IMG/VR virus record: IMGVR_UViG_3300045921_000484
Span: 1 to 25,257 of that record
Reading direction: 5' to 3' (one strand)
Length of the DNA: 25,257 nt
DNA from: a virus
Taxonomy: Duplodnaviria > Heunggongvirae > Uroviricota > Caudoviricetes
Part shown: in pieces, positions 185-12,330 of the stretch
Numbering within the stretch: the stretch's first letter is position 1
How the letters are laid out: every line of letters begins with the position of its first letter
Notes under the pieces: generated by a model
What the model was told of the DNA's origin: nothing
Database searches by the model: none
What the model saw: the letters and a program-made list of their open reading frames with translations, nothing else
Position numbers and translations under genes: made by a program

Positions 185-1156
185 ATGTGCGCAATGATTT
201 CCTATTTTGGGGGAAAGAGTTCTCCTGTTTTTATGGAGTTTATTAATTCTAAAATTCCTAAGACTGGAATAAAAACATATATAGAACCTTTTAGTGGTAG
301 TTTTGCTACTTATATGGATGATGATCAACTTGAATTTGATAAAGTTATCTACAATGATAAGAATCGACATCAGGTGAACTTGTATAAGTGTTGTTCTGAG
401 CCCGAAAAATTTCTTCCATATTTAGAGAATTTAAAAAATACTCTTCTTAAAACAGAAGAAAAGGATCCACTAAAAAAATGGGACTTTTATAAGGGTATTT
501 ATAAAGAATATATCAAAAACGATTTCCTAGATAACAATGATTTTGAAATAGGTGATTTTGAAAAAGCTGCTATATACGCATTTTTAATCACATCAGCTCA
601 TAATTCTGTTTACCCACGAGGAGCGGGTTTCAATGGATATAAGAAAGATAAAGATAAACTAAAGTTAGAAGTTCTTATTGATAAATTAAAGAAGAACAAA
701 TATACTAAGAAATTACAATCTATCACTGAGTTCAATAATATTGATTTTGAAGAGTTAATTAGAAAATATGATTCAGAAGATACTTACCTATATTTAGATC
801 CACCATATGCAAGATTTAATGAAGAAAAGGGAGAGGATGATGCTAAGAGGCTATTCTGGTATGGTGCTGACTCTGATGGTGTATTCGGACCCGCTTCACA
901 TAGAAGATTATTGGAATTACTAAAGACTACAAAATGTAGATGGTCTTTATCATACTACTACTTCCCATTACTCGATGAGTTATTACCAAGAGACCAATAT
1001 GTATGGACTCAGAAAGAAGTTTTCAGAAGTTCAGCACATGGTGGTAATAATTCTAGCCTTAAAGGTGAACAAACTAAAGGGGTTGAGTTACTTATTATGA
1101 ATTATGATCCAAATACTGGATTAAGAACAAATATACAGTATGAGTCTAGAGTGTAA
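185..1156 (+). CDS. dam: DNA adenine methyltransferase, Dam/D12 class
   Basis: YFGGKS, YIEPFSGS (SAM-binding motif I), YNDKN, catalytic YLDPPY and C-terminal ELLIMNY; the start may be the second Met (MISY). Confidence 0.9.
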   Translation: MCAMISYFGGKSSPVFMEFINSKIPKTGIKTYIEPFSGSFATYMDDDQLEFDKVIYNDKNRHQVNLYKCCSEPEKFLPYLENLKNTLLKTEEKDPLKKWDFYKGIYKEYIKNDFLDNNDFEIGDFEKAAIYAFLITSAHNSVYPRGAGFNGYKKDKDKLKLEVLIDKLKKNKYTKKLQSITEFNNIDFEELIRKYDSEDTYLYLDPPYARFNEEKGEDDAKRLFWYGADSDGVFGPASHRRLLELLKTTKCRWSLSYYYFPLLDELLPRDQYVWTQKEVFRSSAHGGNNSSLKGEQTKGVELLIMNYDPNTGLRTNIQYESRV

Positions 1157-1901
1157 TTTGTTAGATAGTATAAATAATTTATCATTTAAATTATTAAATT
1201 TACCAGATTTTTTTAACATTCAGGTGTGTGATTATAGTTTACCTGAGAGATTAGAAGCATCTTTTAGTATAAAAACTATACCTCAAGTTTTTGATATTGA
1301 TATTAAGTCTGAAATATTAAAACAAATATGTAATGACCTTACAACAAAAGTTGTTAATAATTCTCTACAAGAAATGTCAAATTCAAGTAATATAGTAGTT
1401 GATTTTATCGATAAAAGAGGACTGGGAGATATCACAATTATTCCATATTCTGATATAGAGGATTTTGTTTCTGAAATAGTGAATCAGTGTCGAGGTTATA
1501 AAAATATTGTTTGTAGTGGGTCTGTTGCTATTGTAATACAGGATGATTCGAGATTACATTTTTCACCACAAAATGAAAATTTCATAAAGACACAATCATT
1601 TATTTATAAGGTTGGTGTTATATGTGGTATCAATGTGTGGATAGATCCATATATGAAATATAATGATTATAAGATAATGGCTTTTAATGATATTGATATT
1701 AAACTTAGTGGATTATCAAGTAAAATTGTATCTGAATCAAATTTTGACCAAAAAATTATCATAGGTTTTACTAAACTTACGAGTATAGGTGATGTTAAGA
1801 AGTTATATATTATAATTAATGAGTCATCTGAGGGGTGGATGATATTTGTTCAAAAAAATAGAGATTCAAAAATTAATAATATTTTGAATGAGGAAAAGTA
1901 G
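1140..1901 (+). CDS. Truncated, divergent paralog of the gp23-like major capsid protein
   Basis: Collinear matches to the MCP in this window: IVCSGSVAIVIQD vs LITNGGLAAALQD; YKVGVICGINVWIDPYMKYNDYKI vs YPVGSIGDISIYVDPYMKYNDNRI; IVSESNF vs VISEATF. Confidence 0.7.
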   Translation: MSLECNLLDSINNLSFKLLNLPDFFNIQVCDYSLPERLEASFSIKTIPQVFDIDIKSEILKQICNDLTTKVVNNSLQEMSNSSNIVVDFIDKRGLGDITIIPYSDIEDFVSEIVNQCRGYKNIVCSGSVAIVIQDDSRLHFSPQNENFIKTQSFIYKVGVICGINVWIDPYMKYNDYKIMAFNDIDIKLSGLSSKIVSESNFDQKIIIGFTKLTSIGDVKKLYIIINESSEGWMIFVQKNRDSKINNILNEEK

Positions 1902-1946: not shown

Positions 1947-2450
1947 TTAGAAAGGTATGTCTTTCTCTTCTTTAGAACTATCTTCTTCATCATTAGCATC
2001 GTTTTCTTCTTCTCCATCATATACAAGTTCATCTTTATATGTGAAATTGAATGTTAATATAGGTCTACCATCTTTAGTTTCCCATAATTCGAATTCAGAT
2101 TCATATTGTAATAGTATGTCATTTTTAAGCTTTTTAGCTAAATCAAATACACTCAGTATATTTTTCATTTTTTCTCTTTTGTTGAGAACTACATATATAG
2201 ATATATTTAGACCCTCACTATCAACATCGGCTTCTATACCAACATTTTTGAATAATGATCTAATTAGATATAGTAGATGTTGCATATCCTCACTTTGTAT
2301 ATACTCATCTTCCTTATCGGGATCATATCCAGCATGAATTGATTTTTTTGAATAGTTTGGTCTTCCATATAAGAAGCCATCTGAATTATCATACTCGATC
2401 TCTACTGGATCGATTTCTTCGAATAATTTTTTATATTTTTTTAATTTCAT
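1947..2450 (-). CDS. Hypothetical acidic protein with putative capsid-targeting N-terminus
   Basis: 167-aa ORF directly abutting the peptidase stop; N-terminus MKLKKYKKLFEE. Confidence 0.75.
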   Translation of the reverse strand: MKLKKYKKLFEEIDPVEIEYDNSDGFLYGRPNYSKKSIHAGYDPDKEDEYIQSEDMQHLLYLIRSLFKNVGIEADVDSEGLNISIYVVLNKREKMKNILSVFDLAKKLKNDILLQYESEFELWETKDGRPILTFNFTYKDELVYDGEEENDANDEEDSSKEEKDIPF

Positions 2451-3812
2451 TTATTTCAATTCAATTTTTAGATATGTGTTTGAGAATGTAAGGTCGGGGT
2501 CTAATTTATGTTTTCTTAAAATAACAGACATTGATGATAATGTATTGTGTATTTCATCTATGCTAGAATCTTCTAAATCTATCCTTATAAATACAACGCC
2601 TTCATTACCAACAACTTTTGTTTCTGAATCAAATATAGACTCTTTAATATCCTTAATTAAGTGCTTGTATTTTTTTAATAATTCTTCATCAATTCCAACT
2701 TTTCTAACAGTTGGTAATGAGTTCCAATTAACTCTTAGAGTAGCTTGACATAACTTTATTAGATAAGTCATATTTTGGCTTTCATCTCTAGTATGTTCTT
2801 TATTATAACCAACAGAAACATTTGTGCATTCTGGTATTTGATCAATAAATGAAGCTGAATCAGTATATACACCAGTTGGATCTAATGATAATTTTAGACC
2901 ACTTTTATTAAATTCTTTACACAATGCTGTTGCGAACTCATTTGAACAGCATTTTCTACCCATTTGTTGCGTGATAACAGAGTGTGTTTTTCTTCTATCA
3001 AAAGAGATACATCTTTTGATGTTTTTTAAGTATTCTACTTCATCATACACATATGATAATTGATGAGATCCTATTCCACCTCTTTCTTCCCCAATGAAGA
3101 AATAGTATAGTCCTGGTATATTATGAGCCATCATATACATCATAATAGTTACACCTGATTTATCATCAGCTCCTAATATAGTATTACCATCTGTTATGAT
3201 ATATTCATTTCCTTCATGTATTACACTAAATAGATTAACTTCTGATTGATTTCTATCAGCCGTATCTAAGTGAGATGTGAACATTGTCTCAGGCTTATCA
3301 CCTATTATATAATAGTAGTTACCAACAACATCTTTTTTGAGGTTTTGTGGTAAGAATTTCAATACTTCATGTTCGTGTCCGTGCGGGTACGTCATTGTCA
3401 CCATTGACAGAAATGTTGATCTAACGTCTTTTGGGTTATATTTGAATTCACCCACTGTTATAGGTTTACCTCCAAATCTACTTTCTACTGTATCGCCTTT
3501 TACACCAGTTAATTTATGTATTCTATTTACGAATTTAGCGATATCCGACCTCATTATTGTTCCTTTGAAGAAATATTCAGCGAACCTATCTATCCTCATT
3601 GGACGAACCTTGTCATCAATTGTTACATCAAATGAACCAGGTGTTCTGGATAAATCTACTTTAGTTATTTTTAGACCATTATGATACTCAGCATCCGGTT
3701 CTGTCATCCATAGTAACTCGAAAGCCAAATATAGATTTTCACTTTCTAGTTTTTTTAATACACCTATAAGTGCTTTAGAGAATTCTATCTTTGGTAAACT
3801 GTTTTCTGACAT
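2451..3812 (-). CDS. M28-family (M20/M28 clan) zinc peptidase with N- and C-terminal extensions
   Basis: Metal-ligand motifs FTSHLDT, LGADDKSG, GEERGGIGS, ISFDRR, YTDSASF and SVGYNKEHT. Confidence 0.85.
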   Translation of the reverse strand: MSENSLPKIEFSKALIGVLKKLESENLYLAFELLWMTEPDAEYHNGLKITKVDLSRTPGSFDVTIDDKVRPMRIDRFAEYFFKGTIMRSDIAKFVNRIHKLTGVKGDTVESRFGGKPITVGEFKYNPKDVRSTFLSMVTMTYPHGHEHEVLKFLPQNLKKDVVGNYYYIIGDKPETMFTSHLDTADRNQSEVNLFSVIHEGNEYIITDGNTILGADDKSGVTIMMYMMAHNIPGLYYFFIGEERGGIGSHQLSYVYDEVEYLKNIKRCISFDRRKTHSVITQQMGRKCCSNEFATALCKEFNKSGLKLSLDPTGVYTDSASFIDQIPECTNVSVGYNKEHTRDESQNMTYLIKLCQATLRVNWNSLPTVRKVGIDEELLKKYKHLIKDIKESIFDSETKVVGNEGVVFIRIDLEDSSIDEIHNTLSSMSVILRKHKLDPDLTFSNTYLKIELK

Positions 3813-3837
3813 TACTTATTATAATTTTATAGTAATA

Positions 3838-3846
3838 TATATATTA
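3838..3846 (-). promoter_or_regulatory. Putative late promoter TAATATATA (peptidase)
   Basis: Motif recurs upstream of structural/late genes across the window. Confidence 0.6.
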
Positions 3847-3849
3847 ATA

Positions 3850-4542
3850 TTAAACATCAATTTCGTTGGCATTTATGTAGTCAACTTTTACTTGACCATT
3901 ATTCATCCCCGGCTCTTTTTTGACAAATTTTCTTTTACAGTAAACAACCGTTACTTTATTATCCTTTGGTGATTTACTATTTTTTTTGGCAATTGATGCT
4001 GCTTTTTTTATTACTTCGTTTGTTGGTAATTTATCATTTACTCTTATTACTATGTGACTACCAGGTACACCTTTTGCATGCATCCATATATCTTCTTTAT
4101 TAGCTATATTGAATGTTAAATGGTCATTTGACAAAGCATCTTTACCTATATAGATTGTAAATCCGTCAATTTCCATTTTTTTAATATTAGGAAATTTATT
4201 TTTTTTAGACTCATTAAATAAACTAAAATTCATTATTTTACTTTCTTTTATGTTATCCAAACAAAAATCAGTGAATTTATCCCAGTCACCTTTTTCTATA
4301 TTACCAATTTTTAATGATATCAATTCTTCTTCACCTTTAAATATATAATAATTTGTTTCGTTTTCTTCGATTCTCTCCTCAACACAACTATAAGGTGGAT
4401 TATTAAAATCTTCAATATCCATATCATCATATATTAATTTATTACAAATATATGCGTATATCCCAGTTAAGTTATTAAAGTATTTTATTATTATATTTTG
4501 ATCGTCATTCCGATTTTCAATTAATAGATATTTGCCACTCAT
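3850..4542 (-). CDS. NFACT RNA-binding domain (DUF814) protein with unknown N-terminal domain
   Basis: C-terminal half has IYIGKDALSNDHLTF...DIWMHAKGVPGSHIVIR...AASIA...VVYCKRKFVKK, typical of NFACT-R. Confidence 0.85.
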   Translation of the reverse strand: MSGKYLLIENRNDDQNIIIKYFNNLTGIYAYICNKLIYDDMDIEDFNNPPYSCVEERIEENETNYYIFKGEEELISLKIGNIEKGDWDKFTDFCLDNIKESKIMNFSLFNESKKNKFPNIKKMEIDGFTIYIGKDALSNDHLTFNIANKEDIWMHAKGVPGSHIVIRVNDKLPTNEVIKKAASIAKKNSKSPKDNKVTVVYCKRKFVKKEPGMNNGQVKVDYINANEIDV

Positions 4543-4546
4543 AATG

Positions 4547-4555
4547 TATATATTA
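4547..4555 (-). promoter_or_regulatory. Putative late promoter TAATATATA, 4 nt before the NFACT-R ATG
   Basis: Recurrent motif. Confidence 0.65.
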
Positions 4556-4577
4556 ATTACAAATTATTTAAAAAAAG

Positions 4578-4603
4578 AAAAAAGACTCCGAAGAGTCTTT
4601 TTT
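4578..4603 (-). terminator. Rho-independent terminator downstream of the major capsid gene
   Basis: Minus strand reads AAAAAAGACTC-TTCG-GAGTCTTTTTT: perfect stem, cUUCGg tetraloop and U tract. Confidence 0.9.
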
Positions 4604-4621
4604 CAATATATGGTAACTTAA

Positions 4622-6313
4622 TTAGTTAAGTAAACCTTTACTGTCATCAACTTTGATAGTCATGAACTGCTTTTGAGGGAACCAACCTACCTCAGCGATT
4701 GCATAACGGCTTCTTAATAACATTCTTGGAGCGAATGTTGCTTCAGAAATAACAGTAATAGACTGAGCCATTAAGTAAGGTACGAAAATGATACCTGGTT
4801 GGTCAGGATTGTTCTTTCTACCAAGAACGATTCTGTTATCGTTATACTTCATATATGGATCAACGTAGATAGAGATATCTCCGATAGAACCTACTGGGTA
4901 TAATTGACCTTGAGCATTCATCTTAGATTTAACTGGGTTAATTGTATAACCTGCAATATCTTGAAGAGCCGCAGCAAGACCTCCGTTTGTGATTAGATAC
5001 TGAGCAGGACCAATACGACCTTCAGTTGCTATGTAGTTCGAAGCATGAGCTATCTTAGTGATAAGTTTTCTTTGAACTGCATGTGTAGTTTCACCACCAA
5101 CGTTAGTACCAGCGTAAGCTGTATCTAAGTCAAATATTGTCATATTTGGGATGTTATTTAAACCAGAATTAGAAAGAGGAGCTGATTCTCTGTTAAGATC
5201 ACCCATTTCAAAAATCTTAGCAACTATTTGCTTAGAGATTGTTTGAGATAATTCGTTAACAAGTATAGATTCCATTTTTTGAACTATATCCATACCTGTG
5301 TTAGCTTTAATGTCTTCGATTTCAGTCCTTCTTAATGCTGAACTTACTTCAATAGTACCAACTGCAATTGTTTTAGAAGAAATCTTAGGACCGATAACAC
5401 CTGCGTAGCTATCATCATCTTTTTGACGATCCATTGGGTAGTTTCCAGCGAATCCTGTTGTGCTTGACATCCAGTTAGCTGAAAATCCTGGGATATGATC
5501 TTCAAGAGCTGATACTAATTCAACTGTTAAGTTACCAGAACCAGAAGTTACTGATGCTGTACCGATTGTTGTGATTTGATCAACCATTGATTGTGTTGGA
5601 TTGAATGTGTTTCTTGTTTGATCGAATGACCAAAGTGTGCTTGCTGTATTAACCGCGGTGTGAGCTGTGTTAAATTGTCTGTAAGCTCTGAACATTGGGT
5701 ATCCGTCAATACGAGAGAAACCTAAGAACTCAACAATACCAGCTTTTGAACCAGTTGGCTCAGTAGCTGTATTTACAGTAGGACCGTAGATATTTGTAAA
5801 CCATCTACCAGTTAAACCACCTTGAGTTTGTTGACCAGCGTTTGCAGTTAAAGTAGCGTTAACTAAAGATCTTTCAGTTGCATTAGCAATATTTAATTTG
5901 AAAACTTGTGGTCTTTCATCTTGAGCCCCTAAACGAGTATCATCGTATTGGAAGTCGATGTAAAGTAAATCGATTTTTGGACCCGGAGAAGGCTTAACAG
6001 CTACTAAATCAAGACCAATTGTATGAGCTGCAATTTTCATAGCTACTGGTAAAAGGTTCTGACCAACATCACCTGAACCAACTAATGTTGAGTTATTACC
6101 TATTGTTTGACCAGCTAATAATGATGGTTGAGGAGCAACAACTGCACCCATACCTGCTAAGTTAGATGCGTTAACGTAAGCGTTTTCGTTGATAGAGTGA
6201 TACTCAGCGTATTCAGACATCCAATCAATTTTCTCACTGTTAACACCCATGTTCTCAAGAACTGGAGACCATTTCTTGATTGCTTTTTGTTTGTCTATTC
6301 TAATGTGTGACAT
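4622..6313 (-). CDS. gp23: Major capsid protein, T4 gp23-like
   Basis: N-terminal KKWSPVLE, IGLDLVAVKP, IEDIKA...ILVNELSQTISKQI, IYVDPY, GIIFVPY and TFAPRMLLRSRYAI; adjacent to the protease gene and followed by a strong terminator. Confidence 0.93.
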   Translation of the reverse strand: MSHIRIDKQKAIKKWSPVLENMGVNSEKIDWMSEYAEYHSINENAYVNASNLAGMGAVVAPQPSLLAGQTIGNNSTLVGSGDVGQNLLPVAMKIAAHTIGLDLVAVKPSPGPKIDLLYIDFQYDDTRLGAQDERPQVFKLNIANATERSLVNATLTANAGQQTQGGLTGRWFTNIYGPTVNTATEPTGSKAGIVEFLGFSRIDGYPMFRAYRQFNTAHTAVNTASTLWSFDQTRNTFNPTQSMVDQITTIGTASVTSGSGNLTVELVSALEDHIPGFSANWMSSTTGFAGNYPMDRQKDDDSYAGVIGPKISSKTIAVGTIEVSSALRRTEIEDIKANTGMDIVQKMESILVNELSQTISKQIVAKIFEMGDLNRESAPLSNSGLNNIPNMTIFDLDTAYAGTNVGGETTHAVQRKLITKIAHASNYIATEGRIGPAQYLITNGGLAAALQDIAGYTINPVKSKMNAQGQLYPVGSIGDISIYVDPYMKYNDNRIVLGRKNNPDQPGIIFVPYLMAQSITVISEATFAPRMLLRSRYAIAEVGWFPQKQFMTIKVDDSKGLLN

Positions 6314-6344
6314 AGTTTTTTATTATTTTTTTTTCTTTATAATC

Positions 6345-6391
6345 TATATATAAATCCTAATTTTCTTTATTTTTTCAAGGTGGATTTTTTA
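6345..6391 (-). promoter_or_regulatory. Late promoter TTATATATA (6345-6353) with upstream TAAAAAATCCACCTTGAAAA box (6372-6391) for the capsid gene
   Basis: A near-identical box at the same spacing occurs upstream of the protease gene. Confidence 0.6.
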
Positions 6392-6395
6392 TAGA

Positions 6396-8474
6396 TTAGA
6401 TGTTTTTGAATCTTTCCATTATAGCTTGGACTTCTTTATCAGAAAGTTTATCTTCTTGTATTAAACTTTCATGTGACACAAGCTTCTTAGTAACAGATTC
6501 ATTTTTTTTGAGATTTCTAGTTAACCAGAAATGCTCAATTTGATTTTCAGTTTTTAATACATCTTCTGGGTATAATCTAGCTTGTGATAAGATAGACTTT
6601 TTAGAAGATTCATTTAACTGATTCCAGATTGGCTTAATGTTTTCAGGCATCAATCTGATTATTCTTTCTTCAAGAGATTCATTCTTAGATGAAAGTGCTT
6701 CAGCGATCAAAGAAAGTACATCTTTCTGTGTGAAATAACTTCTTTCGTTTATGTGAAGTTTAACAGTTTCTTGTTCTTCTTCTGATAGTGCATAAAAGCT
6801 ATCAACTTGTGACTTGTTCAAGAATTTTAAGAAATTCAAGTCAGTTGATTCAGAAACTTTACGTTTTTTAGCTTCTTCAATTAATTTATCAATAGATTTA
6901 GATAATTCTGTATCTGATTTGCCTTCGTATGTTGATTCTTCTTCATCTTTATTATCTTCCTCTTCTTCTTTATTATAAACCTTTTCTGAGTTAACTTTAG
7001 AAACACCATTTAATTCACAAGGTTCACATACTTCTTTTTCCTCTTCTTCCTCTTCTATATTTTCAAAACCAGCGTCTTGCAATGAAGGGAAAGATTCTTC
7101 AACAGATTCAAATAATTTACCACTGTTTAATTTCTCAACGATCATTCCTTGATAAGAAATAGATTTGTCAAGATTTTCAGCGATATATTCAGAATATGCA
7201 ATGTTGTCATCTAAATGTTCGGCAATGTACTCAGAGTAAGCAATGTTACCTTCGATATGTTCTGCTAAATATTCAGAATATGCAATTGAGTTATCAACAT
7301 GTTCAGCAATATATTCAGAATAGGAAATATTCTTGTCAAGATTTTCAGCTATATACTCAGAGTAAGCAATATTCTTATCTAAATTCTCAGCTAAATACTC
7401 AGAGTAAGCGATGTTCTTATCAAGATTTTCAGCAATATATTCAGAATAAGAAATATTCTTGTCAAGATTTTCAGCAATATATTCAGAATAAGAAATATTC
7501 TTATCTAAATTCTCAGCTAAATACTCAGAATATTCAATGTTTTTGTCAAGATTCTCAGCAAGATATTCAGAGTAGTTAATTGCTTTCTCTAGATTCTCAG
7601 CTAAGTAGTCATTGTGCTTAATAAGCTTTTCAGCTGTTTCTTTTAGAGATTTATTTTCATTAACAACAACCTGTACTTTTTCAGCCAAGTAATCAAGATA
7701 TTTAATCACTTGTGAGTTAGTTTTGTTTAATTCTTCATAGTATTCAATTAACTGCTCAAGTTTTTTAGGGTTCATATTACCCTTAGTGATGGCACTTTTA
7801 ACTTCTTTTTTAGTAGAAGCTATTTCATTAACTAAGTACTGAGAGTATTCAGTTAATTGTTTTTTTGTAACATAATCGTTCTTATTCATGTTAAATATCT
7901 CATTTATTTTGGACTCATCGGACATTTCATATATCCTAAAGTTAGATTTTGGGTTTGTGTAACCTAGAGACTCATTAAGAACTTTAACACTCATTTTAGC
8001 AGATGAGAAACCCGGATCCGCAACAATGTCATAAGTGAATAGCTTCTTTAATGAAACAGATCCATCAGATTCGGTAATACCTGCTGCTCTGGAAGAAACA
8101 AAAATAGGACACCCGTCATCGACAAGAGCCTTAGCTTCTTTACCCCAGTAAGTATTAAGTAATTTGATTTCACCTTCTACTTTGTTTGATTCTTTTACAT
8201 AAGAAGCTTTGGTAATAATGTGAGATGCTCTTGAAAGAGAAGTGTCAAATACATCGGGGTGATCAAACTCCCCATATACAACACCTAAGCTTTTAATTCT
8301 TTCATTAAGTTCATCAAGAGCAGGAAGGAATTTATCAGCGGTATATATTCTTTCGTTACGGTTTTTAACTCCGAACTCGGTAAAAGTACCGCCTAAAACA
8401 TAATCCTTCTTACCAGCACTGTTCTCTCTTATAAGAGAGCTAGTTGAATTTTCTACAATTAAAACTGGTTTCAT
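6396..8474 (-). CDS. gp21: Prohead protease (gp21-like) fused to a coiled-coil scaffold/core domain
   Basis: N-terminal part has NRNERIY, YGEFDHP, VSSRAAG and TYDIVADPGF (gp21 catalytic His/Ser motifs); followed by about 500 aa of helical, repetitive and acidic sequence. Confidence 0.9.
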   Translation of the reverse strand: MKPVLIVENSTSSLIRENSAGKKDYVLGGTFTEFGVKNRNERIYTADKFLPALDELNERIKSLGVVYGEFDHPDVFDTSLSRASHIITKASYVKESNKVEGEIKLLNTYWGKEAKALVDDGCPIFVSSRAAGITESDGSVSLKKLFTYDIVADPGFSSAKMSVKVLNESLGYTNPKSNFRIYEMSDESKINEIFNMNKNDYVTKKQLTEYSQYLVNEIASTKKEVKSAITKGNMNPKKLEQLIEYYEELNKTNSQVIKYLDYLAEKVQVVVNENKSLKETAEKLIKHNDYLAENLEKAINYSEYLAENLDKNIEYSEYLAENLDKNISYSEYIAENLDKNISYSEYIAENLDKNIAYSEYLAENLDKNIAYSEYIAENLDKNISYSEYIAEHVDNSIAYSEYLAEHIEGNIAYSEYIAEHLDDNIAYSEYIAENLDKSISYQGMIVEKLNSGKLFESVEESFPSLQDAGFENIEEEEEEKEVCEPCELNGVSKVNSEKVYNKEEEEDNKDEEESTYEGKSDTELSKSIDKLIEEAKKRKVSESTDLNFLKFLNKSQVDSFYALSEEEQETVKLHINERSYFTQKDVLSLIAEALSSKNESLEERIIRLMPENIKPIWNQLNESSKKSILSQARLYPEDVLKTENQIEHFWLTRNLKKNESVTKKLVSHESLIQEDKLSDKEVQAIMERFKNI
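7152..7613 (-). repeat. 11 tandem 42-bp (14-aa) repeats SEY(I/L)AE(N/H)LDKNI(S/A)Y inside the scaffold domain
   Basis: Counted directly in the translation and DNA. Confidence 0.95.
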
Positions 8475-9234: not shown

Positions 9235-10944
9235 TTAGAATTCGAATTCACCGCTGGATTCTCCAGATTCTCCACCGGCTTCTTCGCTTCCACTTTCGGT
9301 TGTTTCTTGTGATACTCCTGTTTCTCCGCCAGATTCAGGTGTTGCTTGTGATCCGGTCGTTTCGATGCCTTCGGATCCAATTTCACTACCCTCAGATCCA
9401 CTTTCTGTTGTTGATCCAGATGATGATGAATCTTTTAGCCAGTACTTTTTATTTTCCTCTTTTTCTTCTGGTGTTAATTTAAATATGTGATCCATAATAT
9501 AGTCAATATGGAAGTAAGGTTTTTCACCATTCATTATACCAAGCATTGTATTTACAATGTCAGCTTTCTTTTGAATGTTTCCTAATTTTTTCCATTCTTC
9601 AAACACTTGGTTTGAGTTGAAGTTAATATCTATTTGATTCAAGAATGATTCATCATTCTTTAACTCTGGGAACTCTATTAGAATTTGCAGTTTAATTGGT
9701 TTAACAATTAATTCCTTGAAGTTTGCTCTTAATCTATTGATGAAGTTAGAGAACTTAATCTCATCTCTTGTCATCTCAGCAGCATCTGTGAATAGATTAC
9801 CGCCACCATTTTCTTTTTCAAATCTTTGAAATGGTATCTTTGATGCTCTTTTTAATGCATTGTAGAACCAAGTTAACATGTCTGACTCATTCAGGTTGTG
9901 TCCTTCTGGTGACACTAAATCCATTTGTGGTGTACCAGCGTCTCCCTCAGGAAACCATATTTGTTTATTATATGGTAAGTGCTTAGATCCATTTATAGTT
10001 AATGTACCTAAAGTATCATCCCATTCAACCTCTTCTGAATAGTCATGTATTAATTGACCAATTTGTTCTTCGGCTCTTTGTCTTGACATACCTTTAATAG
10101 GTATTGTGAATTTTTGATAAACTGTGGCGTTAATAATATTGAACATTATTCTTGTTTGCTCAAGAATCTTTAATTGATTATAAGGCTTTATTAACCCTTC
10201 AACATAAGAAGTTTCTGAATAGTCATTTTGCGTAGCATATGATATATAAACTATTTGCGAGTCTAAGAATATTCTCCTTAATTGAGGATCTTCTGGATAT
10301 TGAATCCATAAATGTCCTATACTTGGTTCATATGCTGGAACTAGTGTTTCTGGTCTTAATCTATTAAATCCAATGATGTTTTTCTTTTTATCATCATATA
10401 TGATTTCCATTGCAATAAATCCATCAATTAGGAAATCTTTCATCATGTTCCATGCTGTTATATTGTCTGAGAATCCAAATTTATTATAGATTTTCTCGAA
10501 ATATTCTTGATACTTATCTTTTATTTCTTGTGAATAATCATTTGATAATGGTTTAGGTGAACAAAAATCTTTATCGTTATATACGATAGTCTCATCTGCT
10601 ATTGTACTAATAAAGTCTCTAATTTCATCCTTTATCGAATATTCTCTTAATATTCTTCTTTTATCAGCATAAGATTTGTCTAAATATGGAATAGATTTTC
10701 TATTTAATACAGAAGCTACGGCCCTTTGTGAGAAAAAATCGTACATGCTATTTCCTCTAGCAGCTAATGGATCTTCATTTATTCCAATACCTACTTGGTT
10801 TCTGACGATCATATCGTCATAGTTCATTCCATAGTTTGAAAGATTTCTTAATATTCTACTAAATAACCCTTTATTTTCAATAGCTGTATTGATGTATATT
10901 CCGCCTGTGTTTCTTGAGTTAAATGGATTATATGATTGAGCCAT
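9235..10944 (-). CDS. gp20: Portal protein, T4 gp20-like, with acidic S/G/E-rich tail
   Basis: FLIDG, SYVEGLIKPYNQLKILE, WFPEGDAGT, YNALKRASKIP and EMTRDEIKFSNFINRLR match gp20 conserved blocks; located in the head module. Confidence 0.92.
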   Translation of the reverse strand: MAQSYNPFNSRNTGGIYINTAIENKGLFSRILRNLSNYGMNYDDMIVRNQVGIGINEDPLAARGNSMYDFFSQRAVASVLNRKSIPYLDKSYADKRRILREYSIKDEIRDFISTIADETIVYNDKDFCSPKPLSNDYSQEIKDKYQEYFEKIYNKFGFSDNITAWNMMKDFLIDGFIAMEIIYDDKKKNIIGFNRLRPETLVPAYEPSIGHLWIQYPEDPQLRRIFLDSQIVYISYATQNDYSETSYVEGLIKPYNQLKILEQTRIMFNIINATVYQKFTIPIKGMSRQRAEEQIGQLIHDYSEEVEWDDTLGTLTINGSKHLPYNKQIWFPEGDAGTPQMDLVSPEGHNLNESDMLTWFYNALKRASKIPFQRFEKENGGGNLFTDAAEMTRDEIKFSNFINRLRANFKELIVKPIKLQILIEFPELKNDESFLNQIDINFNSNQVFEEWKKLGNIQKKADIVNTMLGIMNGEKPYFHIDYIMDHIFKLTPEEKEENKKYWLKDSSSSGSTTESGSEGSEIGSEGIETTGSQATPESGGETGVSQETTESGSEEAGGESGESSGEFEF

Positions 10945-12224: not shown

Positions 12225-12330
12225 TATGTAGATTATTTTCTTTTATATATAAAAAAATGAAGAACACAGTGCGTACTAAATTATTTTTTGGAATTTATAT
12301 ATAGGATATCTGAATTTTTAATATATAGTA

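Follow-up and report, generated by a model that had tools for sequence, protein, structure and literature searches.

The DNA analysed here (the window, 25,257 nt) is the first 25 kb of a 195-kb viral contig, IMG/VR record IMGVR_UViG_3300045921_000484 (completeness 34%, CheckV). It opens with a short block of plus-strand genes, the last of which (1140–1901, +) encodes a 253-aa protein, termed mini-HK97 in the following, that BLASTP, hhalign, AlphaFold2, Foldseek and VIA identify as a compact paralogue of the gp23-like major capsid protein (MCP) encoded in the same window. The putative parent, the MCP gene (563 aa; 4622–6313, −; Pfam Gp23 PF07068, E 4.4e-29; best PDB match T4 gp23), belongs to a head module of T4 type. 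Upstream of mini-HK97 lie the 3' end of a NADAR-domain gene that is cut by the contig start (2–73, +), whose last 23 codons match the ...GENxLGKILMxVR... C-terminus of the NADAR genes found before Dam in relatives, and the gene for a D12-class N6-adenine DNA methyltransferase (Dam; 185–1156, +; Pfam PF02086, E 1.7e-16; phrog_56, E 1.4e-29). Mini-HK97 overlaps the Dam stop by 17 nt, as an earlier, sequence-only reading of this DNA had observed.

Judged by sequence comparison, mini-HK97 is a genuine homologue of the window's MCP. BLASTP aligns residues 123–208 with MCP 440–533 (E 2e-9, 26% identity), the octapeptide DPYMKYND being the same in both proteins, and the family profile matches the MCP with an hhalign probability of 99.3% (E 1.9e-20; family positions 44–203 against MCP 336–539), so that homology extends over the spine helix, the A-domain and the P-domain. 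An exhaustive HMMER search (E≤1e-3) recovered at least 143 representative clusters of about 240 aa, nearly all of 215–270 aa and alignable over their full length, while a word-indexed protein search returned the query alone; 124 of these sequences form the profile used for hhalign, for per-column conservation and for the tail statistics given below. These three results together make the homology real, and the resemblance to the C-terminal half of the MCP recorded by the sequence-only reading is upheld. The family is acidic (median pI 5.2) and none of the clusters sampled carries a functional name. In Pfam, Gp23 (PF07068) is its sole family match (residues 57–182 against profile positions 180–307), at 18.5 bits and so below the gathering cut-off of 24.4 bits; Pfam did not place it among the encapsulins, and its nearest sequence relatives are the phage MCP and T4 gp24.

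The AlphaFold2 model of mini-HK97, computed with the family alignment as input, is of high confidence (predicted local distance difference test score, pLDDT, 93.7; predicted template modelling score, pTM, 0.88). It runs from an N-terminal helix through a hairpin, a 26-residue spine helix, the helices and sheet of the A-domain and long P-domain strands to an extra C-terminal helix. The N-terminal helix (aa 3–12) and the short E-loop hairpin (aa 25–44) are encoded at 1140–1271 (+) and carry 1.0–1.4 bits of information per column; in this N-terminal part the family profile aligns to T4 gp24 150–294, its E-loop and spine-helix region. The HK97 spine helix (aa 55–80; 1302–1379, +) is aligned by hhalign to MCP 336–370. 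The conserved A-domain core (aa 120–182; 1497–1685, +) reaches 2.0–2.7 bits, with G159 at 99% and D169 at 90%, and includes the DPYMKYND loop (1644–1667, +), whose counterpart in the MCP aligns with the T4 gp23 segment ...YIDQYAKQDY.... The extra C-terminal helix (aa 231–251; 1830–1892, +; pLDDT 95–96) is absent from the MCP.

Structural searches with this model lead to HK97-fold shells. Foldseek returned 232 PDB chains at E≤1e-3, and among the matches listed all are HK97-fold capsid or encapsulin shells; in BFVD the structural matches are all MCPs. The exhaustive VIA search placed T4 gp24 first (1yue_A, Z 11.2, root-mean-square deviation 3.8 over 211 residues, model positions 2–228) among 59 chains at Z≥8, with encapsulins at Z ~10 and T4 gp23 at Z 9.7. 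What mini-HK97 lacks is the MCP leader (delta region), the N-arm and the insertion domain, roughly MCP 1–300, the match beginning at MCP 336. The sequence-only reading had called the gene truncated, which is correct at the level of sequence but not at that of the fold, since the predicted HK97 core is complete by AlphaFold2, Foldseek and VIA: according to the model, mini-HK97 is a complete compact HK97 core and not a broken half. We propose that it arose from the phage's own gp23-like MCP by loss of the leader, N-arm and insertion domain and gain of the C-terminal helix. Encapsulins, with a similarly compact fold of ~250 aa and an N-terminal helix, resemble it at Z ~10; unlike them, mini-HK97 descends from a phage MCP and is known here as a monomer model.

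These comparisons with gp23 and gp24 bring forward a possible, if doubtful, role as a reduced vertex (penton) or minor shell protein, a counterpart of T4 gp24 that would form pentamers at the eleven non-portal corners, with the C-terminal helices perhaps bundled on the five-fold axis. T4 gp24 (PDB 1YUE; 5VF3 chain a) shares with mini-HK97 the HK97 fold, paralogy to a gp23-type MCP, a size below that of the MCP and a gene position downstream of the MCP gene. This protein is both the top structural match and the source of the only notable matches of the family profile among PDB sequences, where it fills the top three places (one protein in three depositions) over the E-loop and spine helix, although that sequence match is weak (E 0.06) and structurally gp24 leads gp23 by 1.5 Z units only. 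A complete core with E-loop and P-domain speaks for this role, as does an A-domain loop identical to that of the MCP and so suited to capsomer-type contacts, and short vertex proteins do exist, one of 297 aa from Vibrio phage nt-1 being entered in BFVD as 'head vertex protein'. In contrast to gp24, mini-HK97 has 253 aa rather than 427, is without the insertion domain and long N-arm, carries the extra C-terminal helix with a shared tail described below and is encoded 5–7 kb away from the MCP, with non-structural genes in between; it also diverges at about 3 times the rate of the MCP and is missing from some close relatives.

The genomic setting was compared in 11 related contigs, where the genes for the protease-scaffold fusion, MCP, an NFACT-R protein, an M28-like peptidase, a protein of 140–190 aa, a variable stretch, NADAR (PF08719), Dam and mini-HK97 follow one another on a single strand (exceptions L010 and L011). 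Mini-HK97 closes the head module of these relatives, 5–7 kb downstream of the MCP and behind the NFACT-R, peptidase, NADAR and Dam genes. The NADAR genes preceding Dam match PF08719 with E 4e-26 and 2e-27, Dam is 60–88% identical in 10 related contigs and the MCP 72–79% identical across them (tblastn). NADAR and Dam precede mini-HK97 in 9 of the 11; Dam is absent from L010, and in L011, where the gene upstream of Dam was not checked, 792 nt separate Dam from mini-HK97, which rules out an obligatory coupling. The coupling to Dam proposed by the sequence-only reading thus holds for the other relatives, in which the two genes overlap or lie no more than 6 nt apart, but is not universal. In this contig alone the NADAR-Dam-mini-HK97 block (1–1901) is inverted with respect to the head block (1947–8474); either the rearrangement is genuine or it was introduced by assembly at the end of the contig. 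The position of the gene on the strand opposite to the MCP is therefore a feature of this contig, because the 11 relatives carry it on the MCP strand. This place at the end of the head module is in keeping with a vertex protein, while the non-structural genes intervening between mini-HK97 and the MCP are not.

Expression timing is bound up with the same arrangement. A motif, TAATATATA, occurs 15 times in the window against 2.5 copies expected and lies 5–31 nt upstream of where head genes and other tagged genes start; examples are found at 3838, 4547, 8505, 10967, 11497, 18541, 19346 and 24079 (−) and at 12319 and 21182 (+). Some copies sit so near the ATG that leaderless mRNAs are implied, and the MCP gene has the variant TTATATATA. 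As the sequence-only reading had noticed for mini-HK97, no copy of TAATATATA lies directly upstream of Dam or mini-HK97 on the plus strand; the only one nearby (1804–1812) is on the minus strand inside the open reading frame (ORF). The conclusion drawn in that reading, that mini-HK97 lies outside the late program, is not supported: it rested on the strand and the missing motif in one rearranged contig, whereas in the relatives the gene points the same way as the head genes and a late-type motif, T[AT]ATATATA, occurs on the same strand 1.5–3 kb upstream of it in 8 of 9 relatives' loci, just past the preceding head-module gene and upstream of the co-directional block. Late expression, which would suit a vertex protein, is possible on these grounds.

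Upstream of Dam (window ~100–184), and also in L001 and L008, a box TTTTGAGTA is followed by AAACT-N15-17-TATA and could be a candidate non-late promoter. A simple sigma-70 scan gave 11 promoter-like sites, fewer than in shuffled sequences (mean 18), and three terminator-like sites (shuffles, mean 0.3) all lie within coding sequences, with none at the ends of the Dam-mini-HK97 unit.

No other gene of the block diverges nearly as fast as mini-HK97. Across ten genomes its median pairwise identity is 29%, compared with 80% for the protease-scaffold, 77% for the MCP, 72% for Dam, 69% for the NFACT-R protein, 56% for the peptidase and 45% for the 140–190 aa protein (167 aa in the window). Its identity is 24–38% everywhere but in the pair L043/L045 (85%), and even L001 and L008, the closest MCP pair outside L043/L045 (86%), share a mini-HK97 that is 29% identical. 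This pattern looks like old allele classes exchanged among otherwise similar phages. Within the family, the DPYM loop, the A-domain core and the end of the C-terminal helix are best conserved, and the N-helix, the E-loop and the helix 103–116 are least conserved, with much of the P-domain weak. Nor is the gene conserved alongside the MCP across the clade: it is present in the complete genome LR756502 (E 5.5e-61) and was not found in the complete genomes LR756504 and Lak-B5, in which the MCP alone was matched. Because the distribution is patchy, a special capsid paralogue would appear to be dispensable in close relatives. For a vertex protein these observations are awkward, as sequences that differ so widely between phages with MCPs ~77% identical show no co-variation with the shell, the would-be lattice-contact elements are the least conserved, and the insertion domain and N-arm are missing.

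Two outlying relatives, capsid-derived genes in the complete genomes of more distant huge phages, were also noted. LR756500.1 encodes a 313-aa tail-less, divergent relative at 247.7–248.3 kb (L028:1372-2313, −) beside recombinase-like and polymerase genes, and LR756501.1 has at 542.3–542.8 kb (L034:1528-2094) a 188-aa fragment-like ORF that is A-domain-like behind a coiled-coil N-terminus.

Fast divergence is accompanied by constraint. In L043/L045, the single close pair suitable for the estimate, the ratio of nonsynonymous to synonymous substitution rates (dN/dS) is 0.16 for mini-HK97, 0.02 for Dam and 0.32 for the MCP, so that mini-HK97 appears, from this one pair, to be under purifying selection. 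Together with the 143 clusters of constant length, this refutes neutral decay. A functionless remnant of a capsid gene duplication, decaying or due to chance, might have been suspected from the low identity to the MCP and the sub-threshold Pfam score, but is vanishingly improbable given end-to-end alignability, invariant tail residues, a model with pLDDT 94 and a position kept in 11 contigs. Mini-HK97 is an intact, selected gene of an undescribed and unnamed huge-phage family. In the same L043/L045 comparison the MCP (L043:3607-5367) has the highest dN/dS of the block and is 80% identical, compared with 85–98% for its neighbours, a result that hints at a variable stretch within the MCP, perhaps its insertion domain.

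The extra C-terminal helix ends in a motif, R-D-x-K-I-D/N-x-I-L (1860–1886, +), that lies 0–5 residues from the end in 103 of the 124 members. The sequence-only reading saw an unrelated tail here (RDSKINNIL); the MCP indeed has no related sequence, but no motif of the family is better conserved, with R241 invariant (100%), I245 at 91%, K244 at 86% and L249 at 83%. A 28-column hidden Markov model of the tail matched the extreme end of at least five further, unrelated ORFs in the contig (E 8e-5 to 1.5e-3), with some weaker cases besides. The small tail-bearing ORFs outside the window lie at 173569–173783, 86527–86757, 75707–76249, 79490–79987, 50806–51030 (+), 194818–195150 (−) and 128572–128949 (+), and the general form of the tail on them is a helix of ~20 aa, ...R-[DE]-x-K-[IL]-[DN]-x-[ILV]-[LIF]. 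Consecutive small genes of LR756502.1 (~243.1–249.3 kb), 8–14 kb downstream of mini-HK97, end in the same tail, and their orthologues, 45–50% identical, retain it. In a separate family of 180-aa proteins (64 homologues, 36–88% identity) the form S-Y-x-R-D/N-K-K-I-D-D-I-F is nearly invariant; the model of this family has a RecA/KaiC-like fold, in which the tail ends a terminal helix of lower confidence.

It is the peptide and not the DNA that is conserved, because synonymous codons differ between copies, and a DNA-level origin of the tail, such as a shared terminator or recombination box, is ruled out on the same ground. Pfam and PHROGs gave no match for the other tail-bearing ORFs, and a phmmer search of the 25-aa tail against PDB gave none. 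No support was found for three further likenesses, namely to the targeting peptide of T4 gp24 and internal proteins, the PIP-box spacing (hydrophobics 4, 7, 8) and the MuA ClpX tag. The tail-bearing ORFs inspected are situated among genes for peptidase, phosphoesterase, glycosylase, thymidylate synthase, polymerase and helicase; the replication enzymes inspected in this contig are without the tail. Whichever reading of mini-HK97 holds, the shared tail points to a common docking partner in this clade. Its occurrence on proteins without a structural look is a further point against a vertex role.

One conserved peptide at the end of several unrelated proteins recalls the cargo peptides of encapsulins, although mini-HK97, itself of shell fold, bears the peptide, and to our knowledge its motif differs from known encapsulin cargo-loading peptides. 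The tail could accordingly be a loading peptide that binds the inner MCP shell or the scaffold in the manner of encapsulin cargo peptides or of scaffold C-termini, mini-HK97 and the other tail-bearing proteins being internal head proteins that are packed and injected. The clustering of tail-bearing genes in LR756502 within ~15 kb downstream of the head module would agree with this, as would the rapid divergence of mini-HK97, since T4 internal proteins are likewise fast-diverging. We nevertheless consider cargo quite unlikely, because the 90 nt preceding the tail-bearing ORFs contain no late motif and those inspected sit among DNA-metabolism genes.

The reading that we prefer, with a rough probability of 0.4, is that mini-HK97 is a tail-addressed, soluble accessory mimic of the capsid protein and not a regular brick of the shell. 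It retains the A-domain face of the MCP, with the identical DPYMKYND loop, and would thereby bind whatever binds unassembled MCP at this face, be it the MCP or a capsid-recognising host factor, while the C-terminal R-D-x-K-I-D-x-I-L tail would dock it on a partner common to the other tail-bearing small proteins. An accessory role fits better than that of a standard shell brick with the fast divergence, the patchy distribution, the link to NADAR and Dam and the presence of the tail on non-structural-looking proteins, and it is favoured because the lattice-contact parts are weakly conserved and the divergence of the gene does not co-vary with that of the MCP. The lack of a late motif directly upstream of the gene in the window also speaks for it.

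The sequence-only reading had inferred an early-expressed capsid decoy or assembly modulator, not a normal vertex protein. This is partly supported: an intact, selected paralogue with features of an accessory protein is borne out, whereas a decoy would be one hypothetical use of it and a gp24-like vertex role stays plausible. The premise for a decoy is that capsid proteins are sensed by hosts. Capsid-protein sensing is exemplified by Lit and the Gol region of T4 gp23, which presumably lies in the N-terminal part that is absent from mini-HK97. Host sensors that recognise unassembled HK97-fold MCPs include CapRelSJ46 (PMC9712102), and Avs7 and Dsr1 sense HK97-fold MCPs as well (bioRxiv 10.64898/2026.01.04.697583). 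Phage NADARs are reported to act as counter-defence against DarTG1 (PMC11825919). It is conceivable, though unlikely, that mini-HK97, made alongside the DNA-protection enzymes NADAR and Dam, binds and blunts sensors, of the Avs7, Dsr1 or CapRel type, that recognise the HK97 fold of unassembled capsid protein; the deep allele classes would then reflect an arms race with these sensors and the tail would mark a set of counter-defence proteins for a single shared partner. The literature searched on capsid-sensing immunity held no report of a phage-encoded MCP paralogue acting as a decoy.

Several points weigh against the accessory mimic. The whole HK97 core is kept, E-loop and P-domain included, which would be needless for a pure A-domain mimic; a vertex protein heads the PDB matches in both the profile and the structure search; late expression, which the gene order and the upstream late-type motif of the relatives allow, would sit poorly with it; and host sensors that detect a protein could be set off, instead of blocked, by its mimic.

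Two further ORFs of the contig, both outside the window, derive from the MCP. P0007 (249 aa; 68503–69252, −; L006:1432-2181) matches MCP 406–514 in BLASTP (E 2e-6); its orthologues are 29–30% identical and fast-evolving and adjoin a GT2 glycosyltransferase gene, and hhalign of the mini-HK97 family profile against P0007 left the capsid part unaligned. P0008 (152 aa; 172127–172585, +; L005:1477-1935) matches MCP 8–111, the leader and N-arm (E 8e-8). A tail-like motif stands near the N-terminus of P0007 and internally in P0008, where it is kept in the orthologues.

The remaining head genes of the window comprise a portal (9235–10944, −) and a protease-scaffold fusion (6396–8474, −). The latter joins a prohead-type protease (S77-like, phrog_207) to a scaffold-like region in which a 14-aa repeat, Y-S-E-Y-[IL]-A-E-N-L-D-K-N-I-[SA], recurs about a dozen times, each copy with an [IL]-x-E site; this is the kind of site that is cleaved by the T4 gp21 protease. 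The window MCP shares 76–77% identity with its counterparts in the uncultured phages LR745206 and LR756502 (635–642 kb) and ~28% with those of Lak megaphages and Tenacibaculum phage PTm1.

Paralogues of the MCP are known mainly as vertex proteins, of which T4 gp24 is the example. The mini-HK97 family is large and stripped-down: an HK97 fold under selection, with a divergence far above that of a shell protein and an address-like tail. If it proved to be a soluble mimic, mini-HK97 would provide the first case of a capsid-fold protein put to use outside the shell, either in the conflict between phage and host or in the control of assembly; if it is a vertex protein, it would be a minimal penton and would represent a new way of building the corners of giant capsids.

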